A stretch of 64,000 nt of DNA, taken from assembly GCA_018062965.1 (NCBI GenBank), contig JAGORG010000005.1, forward strand, positions 604-64,603. Direction: 5' to 3'. The DNA is from Minisyncoccota bacterium (GTDB lineage: Bacteria > Patescibacteriota > Minisyncoccia > Phycocordibacterales > UBA5272). Of the stretch, positions 7,591-9,835 are shown piece after piece; the stretch's first letter is position 1, and the number at the start of each line of letters is the position of its first letter. The notes beneath the pieces were generated by a model that was not told the DNA's origin, made no database searches, and saw only the letters and a list, made by a program, of their open reading frames with translations. A program made the translations under genes and the position numbers.

Positions 7591-7836
7591 TTATCTGCGT
7601 TTCTTTTTTTCTACAAGCTTACCCATTCGCTTTGCAAGTTCGTATTTTTCTTTTCCAGCAAGCTTCTTCATCTTTGCTTTCTTTACTTTGAGGTCAGAAA
7701 GAGCTCGATCGCTGTAGCGAAGTGAGCGAACACGTGGGAGAACCCCAGATTCCTGAACCTTCTTCTGGAAACGACGAAGGAGAGAAAGAGCGTTTTCTCC
7801 ACCGTTCTTGATTACTTGTACGTTAACGTTTGACAT
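7591..7836 (-). CDS. rpsU: 30S ribosomal protein S21
   Basis: From the internal ATG: MSNVNVQVIKNGGENALSLLRRFQKKVQESGVLPRVRSLRYSDRALSDLKVKKAKMKKLAGKEKYELAKRMGK, which resembles bS21 (VxV..NE..E.ALRRFKR...G.L.E.R.R..Y.KP). TTATAAT lies 9 nt upstream. Confidence 0.8.
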   Translation of the reverse strand: MSNVNVQVIKNGGENALSLLRRFQKKVQESGVLPRVRSLRYSDRALSDLKVKKAKMKKLAGKEKYELAKRMGKLVEKKKRR

Positions 7837-7945
7837 AGTGGGCTCTATTATAACACAGCAAAAAGCGATTAGCAATTAGCTTTTAGAGGAAAATAAAAAG
7901 CCCCCATGTTCTTGGGTTGCTTTTGAAATGTGCTTAGCGTGATGT

Positions 7946-8395
7946 TTACTTGGTCTTTTTTGCAAGTTTGCCAACGGTAAGTCCTTTGGCTAAGAGTACC
8001 TCTCTGATTTCATTCAGGGATTTGCGCCCAAGATTCGCTATTTTTAATAGATCGTCCTCAGTTAGTTTGAGTAAATCGCCAATCGTTTGGATATTTTCCA
8101 TACGCAGAAGGTTGGCTGTTCTTACGGTTAGTTCAAGCCTGTCGATTGACTCAGCGGAAAAAGTCTCCTCTGAAGTCAAAGGGGCGGTTTGTCCTTTTAT
8201 CAAGGAGTCGAGGCGGTCGCGTTCTTTGGCGAGAGGAAGGACAACCTTACCTGCGGCCTTCTCTAGATCTTCATGTTCCTGTTGTAGTAATCCAATTTGG
8301 AGCTTGATTTCACCTTGTCGAGCTTTAATCCGGATGAGTTCCTCTTCCAGTTCTCTCAGGTTGAGAATTGGCACAGAGTTTCCTGTTGCTGCCAT
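7946..8395 (-). CDS. Standalone alpha-CTD-like protein (RNA polymerase alpha C-terminal domain fold) with an N-terminal coiled coil
   Basis: The C-terminal half, [59 protein letters not shown], aligns with E. coli RpoA alpha-CTD ([58 protein letters not shown]). The N-terminal half is heptad-like ([32 protein letters not shown]). A strong Shine-Dalgarno site, GGAGG, sits 6 nt before the ATG, which is unusual for this genome. Confidence 0.6.
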
Positions 8396-8509
8396 GAGTT
8401 GCCTCCTAAGTAATAATGAACAAATGTAAAATTCACACTACATGTAAAATGTAACATTGTCAATGAAATGTTTATTCGCTGAAAAGACTGTGAGCAGGGT
8501 AGAGTGTTG

Positions 8510-9835
8510 CTACTTCAAATGCTTGATGTAATCTGAGAGTGCGTCGATTTTCACAGTGTCTTGTGAGTGTGTAGACATGTTACGTACGATAACAGTGTTA
8601 TCCATAGCTTCTTTTTGTCCGAAGATAATACAATATGGTACTTCCATTTTTTCAGCGATTGCAAGCTGGGCCGAAAGAGAGTCTTTGGCAACGGATTGGT
8701 GTACTGGGATACGTGCCTTGCGCAATACCTCCATAATGCAAAGACTTTTTAGTTTTGCTTCAAAGCCAAGCTGAATAAAGTACACCTTTGGTGGCTTCAT
8801 AATACGTGGAGCGAGTGTTCTGCATTCTGGGAACATCATGATACGTTCAAAGCCAAGCGCTGTACCAACAGCAGGGACGTCTTTCTTTGATCCCATCATG
8901 CGACCGAGATAGTCATAGCGACCACCACCTGTAACAGTGATTTCTTTTTCTTTACCGTTTTCATCCACGTCAACTTTGATAACTTCAAACACGGTACGAG
9001 AGTAGTAGTCGAGTCCTCGAACAAGTGAGTTGTTGATACGATACGGAATCGCCATTTCTTCTAGATACTGGAGCACTTCTTTGAAGTGTGAGCGAGCATC
9101 GTTTGAAAGGTATGCAAGAGATGATGGAGCGTTTTCTTTAAACGGCTGACACTGTTCTTGTTTACAATCCAAAAGGCGAAGCGGATTTGTCTTGATGCGT
9201 TCGTGGCAGTCCTTGCACAAGTTTTCTAAATGCTTTTTGTAGTAATTGGTGAGTTCTTTGATAAACGCAGGTCGGGTTTCCTTGTCTCCCATTGAGTTGA
9301 TATCGACAATCAAATCCTTGAAACCAAATTCTTCAAGAATAGTAGTGAGTGTGCGGATGACGAGTGCGTCCGCAATAGATTTTTGAGTTCCAAGAATTTC
9401 CAAGTTGAATTGTCTGAACTGACGCAAACGTCCACGCTGTGGGTTTTCATGTCGGTATACAGGTCCGTATGAATAGAGTAGTACAGGCTGAGGAAGGTTT
9501 TGCATCCCATGTTCAAGATATGCGCGCATAACAGACGCAGTGAATTCAGGGCGTACTGCAATACGCTCACTTCCTTTTGTTCGAAAGGTGTACATCTCTT
9601 TGTCGATAATATCCGTTCCTTCTCCGTGAGCTGTTGTAAAAACCTCTTCGCGTTCAAGTACTGGAGTGTCTAGTGGTTTGAATCCATAGTACACAGCAAT
9701 TTCTTGTGCTTTTTCAAAAAGCCCTTGATAGGCATAGTATGTTTCTTCAGAAAGGTCGTGCATACCCTTAAGAGAAATAGGGGCTTCCTTTTTTGCATCA
9801 GCTTTTCCTTCTTTTTTTATATCTTTTTCATTCAT
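8510..9835 (-). CDS. hisS: Histidine--tRNA ligase
   Basis: Class II aaRS motifs, including the HisRS-specific GGGRYDYLG and GFERIMM. A Cys4 insertion (CKDCHERIKTNPLRLLDCKQEQC) lies in the middle. Confidence 0.9.
   Translation of the reverse strand: MNEKDIKKEGKADAKKEAPISLKGMHDLSEETYYAYQGLFEKAQEIAVYYGFKPLDTPVLEREEVFTTAHGEGTDIIDKEMYTFRTKGSERIAVRPEFTASVMRAYLEHGMQNLPQPVLLYSYGPVYRHENPQRGRLRQFRQFNLEILGTQKSIADALVIRTLTTILEEFGFKDLIVDINSMGDKETRPAFIKELTNYYKKHLENLCKDCHERIKTNPLRLLDCKQEQCQPFKENAPSSLAYLSNDARSHFKEVLQYLEEMAIPYRINNSLVRGLDYYSRTVFEVIKVDVDENGKEKEITVTGGGRYDYLGRMMGSKKDVPAVGTALGFERIMMFPECRTLAPRIMKPPKVYFIQLGFEAKLKSLCIMEVLRKARIPVHQSVAKDSLSAQLAIAEKMEVPYCIIFGQKEAMDNTVIVRNMSTHSQDTVKIDALSDYIKHLK

Follow-up and report, generated by a model that had tools for sequence, protein, structure and literature searches.

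The C-terminal domain of the RNA polymerase alpha subunit (alpha-CTD) is the textbook tethered module through which bacterial RNA polymerase contacts DNA and activators. The N-terminal domain of the same subunit (alpha-NTD; PF01000/PF01193) dimerises and assembles beta and beta'. The nucleoid-associated proteins H-NS, MvaT, Lsr2 and Rok are small and combine an N-terminal self-associating coiled coil and a flexible linker with a C-terminal reader of A/T-rich minor grooves. To our knowledge, regulators are few in Patescibacteria and almost none has been tested. The domain is textbook material and some short proteins labelled as alpha-CTD are already present in databases. Full-text literature searches turned up no work on the function of any free alpha-CTD protein. 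In a 2026 review of alpha-like subunits, a term search finds no occurrence of either 'standalone' or 'stand-alone' (PMC13374769). Here we describe a gene of a Minisyncoccota bacterium that encodes a 149-aa protein consisting of a long N-terminal helix, predicted to form a coiled coil, and an alpha-CTD. The genome comprises 646 kb in 10 contigs with a completeness score of 100%; the whole stretch of DNA analysed, 64,000 nucleotides long, is referred to as the window.

A 149-aa protein with a true alpha-CTD

The coding sequence occupies positions 7946..8395 on the minus strand (ORF list; ATG start, stop codon included). The first-pass annotation had given the span as 7946..8509; the 149-aa ORF is real, and the remainder of that span is a 114-nt spacer to hisS. 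According to the ORF list, the minus-strand gene row runs lepB-like gene, hisS (8510..9835), the 149-aa ORF, rpsU (7591..7836), ybeY, ftsA and ftsZ. Pfam backs hisS, ybeY and, through a weak match, rpsU; the lepB-like, ftsA and ftsZ labels were assigned by eye from the ORF sequences and are presumptive. PF26169 is a precomputed database domain entry for the 149-aa protein and for some of its relatives.

Residues 81-143 (7967..8155, minus strand) are a true RNA polymerase alpha-CTD, as had been proposed from the first reading of the C-terminus, and Pfam, PDB alignments and Foldseek all agree on this point. The Pfam family RNA_pol_A_CTD (PF03118) matches residues 77-134 with an E-value of 4.4e-20 and 71.6 bits, compared with a gathering cut-off of 23.8, and the PDB sequence matches, at E about 1e-15, are to alpha subunits and isolated alpha-CTD chains. 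The alignments are ungapped. Residues 83-143 correspond to residues 11-71 of the E. coli alpha-CTD 1lb2_B, with 34 of 61 positions identical when the midline is counted by eye, and residues 81-143 correspond to residues 254-316 of the full E. coli alpha chain 10ma_G. At the resulting offset of 173, R92, N95, G123, K125, S126 and E88 are the equivalents of R265, N268, G296, K298, S299 and E261 of E. coli alpha. We take the first five to be the E. coli DNA-binding '265 determinant', and E261 to be listed among the DNA-binding or sigma-contact determinants. These alpha-CTD-specific positions of the '265 determinant' are retained and the similarity is therefore not that of a generic helix-hairpin-helix, an alternative raised at the outset. 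In the family alignment, R92, N95 and G123 are invariant; K125 and S126 are variable (A and G in P0021, R and G in P0036).

The fold agrees with the sequence. The AlphaFold2 model, built from an 11-row alignment, has a mean pLDDT of 83.8, rising above 90 in the alpha-CTD region, and the top Foldseek match is the E. coli alpha-CTD 3k4g_B, with an rmsd of 0.6 Å over 65 columns and 52% identity. Foldseek found 56 PDB matches at E <= 0.001, and the 50 listed are alpha subunits or alpha-CTDs. Judging by their titles, structures of the same fold include the alpha-CTD with AT-rich DNA, with UP/-35 DNA plus sigma region 4, and in a complex of CAP with DNA (9zum, 3n97, 1lb2). The linker preceding the domain (residues 67-80; 8156..8197, minus strand) contains a short helix at 75-81 and is modelled with lower confidence (block pLDDT ~70 for residues 61-80).

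The canonical rpoA of this genome is a separate and intact gene of 317 aa, with both domains, located on contig C2 in a ribosomal-protein operon (L002 1474-2427); its neighbours are presumably an rpsD-like gene upstream and rplQ, rplM and rpsI downstream. The 149-aa gene sits between hisS and rpsU, outside the rpsD-rpoA-rplQ cluster. The alpha-NTD family PF01000 has a single match in the genome, inside the 317-aa rpoA on contig C2, which bears out the earlier statement that the small protein has no alpha-NTD; it thus cannot serve as a polymerase assembly subunit. Models of rpoA equivalogs (TIGR02027 and NF0035xx) align with it solely through their C-terminal 60-80 positions and far under their cut-offs (78.1 versus 302 bits and 64.5 versus 227.8 bits). 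Since there is no alpha-NTD remnant upstream, hisS lies 114 nt away and rpoA is intact on contig C2, the gene is not the 3' fragment of a disrupted rpoA, as could have been suspected.

Nor does the domain closely resemble that of the host polymerase. It shares 36-42% identity with the rpoA alpha-CTD of its own genome, and within this genome the Pfam score of the rpoA alpha-CTD is 54.7 bits versus 74.6 bits for the orphan. At the positions corresponding to E. coli 294-299, the rpoA alpha-CTDs of the order (L002, L006-L022) read GLG[EASQ]KG, versus the widespread NLGRKS of the orphan. A protein scan of genome contigs retained 80 loci, mostly named as Alphaproteobacteria or Acidobacteriota, in which only the alpha-CTD part was matched and which we assumed to be rpoA; their use was confined to that of an outgroup sample. 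In a phylogeny of 59 alpha-CTD segments, built from as few as 60 columns and with a root that is not fixed, the order's 11 rpoA alpha-CTDs group in one clade (100/99), and all 21 orphans fall on the other side, together with 26 rpoA domains from other phyla. The outgroup was picked by similarity to the query, which biases the sample. What the tree shows is that the orphan alpha-CTD is no recent copy of the host rpoA tail, and the conclusion stops there because of the similarity-chosen outgroup and the unfixed root.

Expression signals, relatives and the hisS-rpsU slot

The gene is equipped with its own signals, all on the minus strand. A Shine-Dalgarno sequence, AGGAGG (8402..8407), lies 6 nt 5' of the ATG, and a promoter-like element spans 8435..8463, with TTGACA at 8463-8458, a spacer of 17 nt and TAGTGT at 8440-8435; the transcript would be predicted to start near 8428. 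Both were found by direct reading, confirming the strong Shine-Dalgarno site and the TTGACA -35-like element described previously; the promoter-like element was not flagged by the consensus scan at its threshold. Between the gene and the rpsU promoter, RNA folding places a weak terminator-like hairpin followed by a U-run (7890..7924; -10.8 kcal/mol, z -1.8, with 10 of 200 shuffles equally good), also unflagged by the scan. Shine-Dalgarno cores are rare in the window: of the 48 ORFs that are 150 aa or longer, 6 are preceded by a 4-mer and 2 by a 5-mer or longer, a crude count in which the first ATG was taken as the start. Upstream of the G011 ortholog, the TTGACA and TAGTGT hexamers and their 17-nt spacing are identical and are accompanied by AAGGAG, and in the three syntenic orthologs the downstream hairpin and T-run are, by eye, clearer than here. 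From the Shine-Dalgarno sequence, the promoter-like site, the hairpin and the rarity of such ribosome-binding cores in the window, the gene would seem to be transcribed as a separate unit and to have translation signals of unusual strength.

The adjacent rpsU has a promoter near consensus, which the scan did flag (TTGCTA-17-TATAAT with an upstream TG; 7875..7847, minus strand). With its -10 element ending ~10 nt from the ATG at 7836 and no Shine-Dalgarno sequence, the rpsU mRNA may be leaderless or almost so. Both flanks of the G011 ortholog (L004) bear a near-identical unit of ~45 nt, at about 1390-1490 and 1890-1990, in which TTGACA comes after a terminator hairpin (GGCGACACattgTGTCGCC plus T-run). 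The arrangement resembles a promoter/terminator cassette that was duplicated around that gene.

Relatives of the entire protein are few. A HMMER scan of 1.84 billion representatives recovered 9,508 alpha-CTD-matching proteins at E <= 0.001, three of which, P0021 (145 aa), P0026 (148 aa) and P0036 (166 aa), are related over the full length. Searching 5.8 billion proteins with a profile yielded six full-length clusters at 209-247 bits (the protein's own, P0021, P0167, P0026, P0166 and P0036), after which the scores fall to 101 bits, the level of alpha-CTD-only matches. The five relatives are single-member metagenome clusters and are 43-52% identical to the 149-aa protein (alignment A3). In a class sample of 401 genomes, a full-length match occurs in this genome alone (235 bits; the runner-up has 58 bits). 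A scan of metagenome contigs with alignment A2 returned zero family loci, and the same scan with P0021 returned one locus, L147, which matches in the alpha-CTD part only, at 39%. The family is very rare, so its role, whatever that is, is dispensable.

The genomic position is itself variable. In the genus, rpsU could be located in 52 of the 53 genomes, and the slot was surveyed in 31 hisS-rpsU loci (L028 and L037-L066; 30 returned by the search, plus that of G019). An alpha-CTD gene, in each case over the Pfam cut-off, stands directly upstream of rpsU in four of them (G000, G011, G015 and G019). The hisS-rpsU gap is shorter than 180 nt in nine loci, and other slots contain an NT5C-type nucleotidase (Pfam-tested once, L042) or ORFs without a Pfam family (12/13 slot ORFs tested). 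Identity of the orthologs to the 149-aa protein is 36% for G011, 32% for G015 and 23% for G019 (A3), compared with ~82% for the adjoining hisS, and the alpha-CTDs of these three syntenic congeners are far more diverged (35.7-60.1 bits). Even contigs of 95-99% similar strains from other samples break at the slot edges, 7849 and 8510. In the RNA runs X15 and X16, contigs that match ftsA/ybeY/rpsU and hisS at 95-99% similarity end at these two positions in unrelated loose ends and leave 7852-8509 uncovered; they derive from relatives without the insert and are thus uninformative on expression of the 149-aa gene. The hisS-rpsU slot (window 7837-8509) is a gene-turnover hot spot within the genus.

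A phage derivation, which the first-pass annotation had entertained, gained no support from database searches. The protein matches 0 PHROGs families at E <= 0.01. Among 50,697 phage records, tblastn found five matches, all confined to residues 84-142: three are annotated as rpoA, one lies in an unannotated 2-kb record and one in a Salmonella chromosome record filed as phage. None of the 349 pattern matches that the family alignment produced in IMG/VR is a relative. Searches for defence systems with PADLOC produced only weak partial matches, to PglW (17.9 bits) and to the coiled-coil part of LmuB (13.5 bits). The BREX PglW model scores 17.8 bits, compared with a cut-off of 990, over a stretch of just 60 residues, so that the protein is not a PglW.

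Gene turnover among congeners, extending to strains of 95-99% similarity, would fit a decoy or conflict gene. In that case the free alpha-CTD would titrate factors that target alpha-CTDs, such as phage proteins or modifying enzymes, or would be mobile-element cargo that redirects host transcription. The fast divergence of the orthologs (32-36% for G011 and G015, against hisS at ~82%), the placement of the domain outside the rpoA clade of the host order and the many differing N-termini attached to orphan alpha-CTDs are in line with such a role. However, at 36-42% identity the domain is a poor mimic of the host alpha-CTD, which makes a decoy unlikely; together with the position outside the clade, this weakens the decoy idea put forward earlier. 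The gene, with a GC content of 0.451 versus 0.423 for the window, is not foreign-looking, and no integrase or other mobile-element gene was seen in the ORF list between 4000 and 13000, four of whose ORFs were Pfam-scanned. The PHROGs, IMG/VR, phage-record and PADLOC results point in the same direction, and we regard a decoy or conflict function as distinctly improbable.

It could be argued that the frame is what is left of a duplicated rpoA, or a chance ORF that is not expressed, and the promoter-like and terminator-like elements that both escaped the consensus scans would fit this. Against it, the frame is intact and preceded by a strong Shine-Dalgarno sequence, the whole length including the helix is conserved in five other metagenomic proteins, no trace of an alpha-NTD lies in the 114 nt to hisS (PF01000 being confined to contig C2), the structural model is confident, and a DNA run of a separate, independent study contains the gene in identical form. 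A decaying or chance ORF is thus scarcely credible. Given the five full-length relatives, the syntenic orthologs in three congeners, the gene's own Shine-Dalgarno sequence, promoter-like site and hairpin, and the identical copy elsewhere, the best explanation is that this is a genuine, separately transcribed accessory gene and no piece of rpoA.

The N-terminal helix and a predicted dimer

Residues 13-66 (8198..8359, minus strand) form a long helix in the AlphaFold2 model (block pLDDT 82-95), which is predicted to pair as an antiparallel homodimeric coiled coil and which includes the motif ERDRLDxL (58-65). In the four-sequence family alignment, L16, L20, I23, I30, L37 and L44 are invariant and stand at heptad a/d spacing, within the predicted dimer interface, in agreement with the heptad coiled coil first noticed by inspection. 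E58, R59, D60, R61, L62 and L65 are likewise invariant. A search of the ESM Atlas with residues 1-80 gave zero feature matches, and the structural neighbours were generic long helices.

Prediction of a two-copy complex gave a score of 0.43 (runs of 0.43, 0.43 and 0.45), versus 0.00 for the best of three controls. This is barely above the mark of 0.42; among proteins of solved structure, 20 of 30 one-chain pairs and one of 23 single chains attain that mark. The input was a self-made alignment of 11 rows. At least 88% of contacts are shared between the runs, and the partner pLDDT is at least 75. The predicted interface covers residues 11-58, and the top contact pairs are 23 with 44-48, 16 with 51, 34 with 34 and 37 with 37. 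These pairs imply, at the level of the model from which both dimerisation and geometry are taken, an antiparallel pairing centred near residue 35, which would place one alpha-CTD at either end of the rod.

On this basis we tentatively favour a mechanism that we consider close to, if short of, an even bet. The long N-terminal helix would pair into an antiparallel coiled-coil dimer that carries one canonical alpha-CTD per rod end on a flexible linker. Like the polymerase alpha-CTD, the heads would each bind A/T-rich, UP-element-like DNA in the minor groove, and the dimer would act as a small bivalent DNA-binding factor at promoter-upstream DNA. There it might compete with the polymerase's own alpha-CTDs, or touch sigma region 4 or activators that contact alpha-CTDs, and the net effect would be to adjust transcription in the small number of strains with the gene. 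Both the DNA binding and any transcriptional effect of the protein are what we infer from its domain and predicted form. Variation at the K298 and S299 equivalents, the divergence of the syntenic domains, the rarity of the family, the marginal dimer score and the unexplained ERDRLDxL motif count against a bivalent binder.

The last of these is also the chief support for the main rival. A plain coiled coil does not account for the conservation of ERDRLDxL, and the motif may be a partner-binding site. If so, the protein could be a polymerase-docked accessory, an extra alpha-CTD whose N-terminal helix, ERDRLDxL included, binds core or sigma and adds a domain of the general bacterial type, thereby widening or changing the recognition of upstream DNA or activators. 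Invariance of the motif in four sequences beyond the needs of a coiled coil is consistent with docking, as is the contrast between the GLG[EASQ]KG of the host order's rpoA alpha-CTDs, with their lower Pfam score, and the NLGRKS of the orphan. However, the exact family occurs in one of 401 class genomes and an alpha-CTD gene in four of 31 genus slots, and the protein is therefore no part of the core machinery; moreover, the homodimer model passes by itself. We regard docking as doubtful.

A further possibility, unlikely in our estimation, is that a polymerase part has here been made into a nucleoid or silencing protein of the H-NS type, the heads of which would bind or bridge A/T-rich minor grooves and exclude polymerase alpha-CTDs at UP-like DNA. 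The heads would then be about 70 Å apart, as estimated from a modelled helix of 46 residues. Under the H-NS-like reading, the protein would be one of an undescribed patescibacterial pool of orphan alpha-CTD regulators, which would comprise coiled-coil, sigma-region-4-fused, Cys-rich and Arg-rich types and, in metagenome proteins, up to 12 alpha-CTD stretches.

Other extra alpha-CTDs and comparison with known systems

Extra alpha-CTD matches are recurrent in the order. At least two PF03118 matches, which are not to be equated with copy numbers, occur in 14 of 53 genomes of the genus (E <= 0.01) and in 22 of 151 genomes of the order (E <= 1e-5). The N-termini of the extra copies differ. They are helical or coiled coil in G053, G176, G084 and G475, and Arg-rich in G003, G016 and G047. 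The 200-aa protein of G060 (L024:3979-4581) combines Sigma70_r4 (27.7 bits versus a cut-off of 24.1), a coiled coil and an alpha-CTD, and a Cys-rich N-terminal segment is also recorded for G060. G210 (L154:1165-1920) contains a fusion of the Sigma70_r4 type that scores 21.3 bits, under the cut-off of 24.1, and P0003 and P0009 likewise join a sigma-70 region 4 HTH to a coiled coil and an alpha-CTD. The extra copy of G044 has a LuxR/sigma-4-like HTH, under the cut-offs. By analogy, the architecture of the G060 protein points the same way as the reading of the 149-aa protein as a binder of promoter DNA.

Many of the 9,508 alpha-CTD matches have non-RpoA architectures, multi-repeat proteins among them. 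P0017 (1031 aa) has 12 alpha-CTD-matching stretches, multiple stretches are also found in P0018, P0024, P0044 and others, and P0040, P0081 and P0019 are small proteins of two or three alpha-CTD repeats. In a fusion of sigma region 4 with an alpha-CTD, the -35-binding and the UP-binding modules of the polymerase are brought together in one small polypeptide.

If the dimeric reading is true, a free alpha-CTD dimerised by another device would be a new route to UP elements and class I activation surfaces, and one of few means of approaching the control of transcription in Patescibacteria. In view of the 22 of 151 order genomes and the thousands of matching proteins, one characterised member would annotate many genes. 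At 149 aa the protein is small and well modelled, so that expression and testing should be easy.

Four known systems invite comparison. Among them are database entries named 'RNA polymerase alpha C-terminal domain-containing protein' (P0203, 107 aa) and the family NF005841 (PRK07758; a 95-aa hypothetical protein), which are also short and have an alpha-CTD-like domain only. The 149-aa protein is not a member of NF005841 (22.9 bits, or 23.1 in the genome search, versus a cut-off of 115) and differs from proteins of this kind in its conserved coiled-coil N-terminus, which is specific to the six-cluster family. The fusions of Sigma70_r4, coiled coil and alpha-CTD share with it the general type of alpha-CTD, a helical spacer in front of the domain and a sporadic occurrence. 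They differ in the additional sigma region 4 HTH, and their alignment to the 149-aa protein is confined to residues 80-141. The resemblance to H-NS-type proteins is one of architecture, a small protein with a coiled coil, a linker and a DNA-binding head, which on the side of the 149-aa protein is taken from models. The two have no sequence kinship: no H-NS Pfam family matches at E <= 1, the head is an alpha-CTD, and the modelled assembly is a dimer only. With RpoA, finally, the protein has in common the alpha-CTD (PF03118) itself, its fold and the key DNA-contact positions, at the 34/61 identity to E. coli given above. It differs from RpoA in having no alpha-NTD, in its predicted dimerisation through an unrelated antiparallel helix and in the position of its domain outside the clade of the host order.
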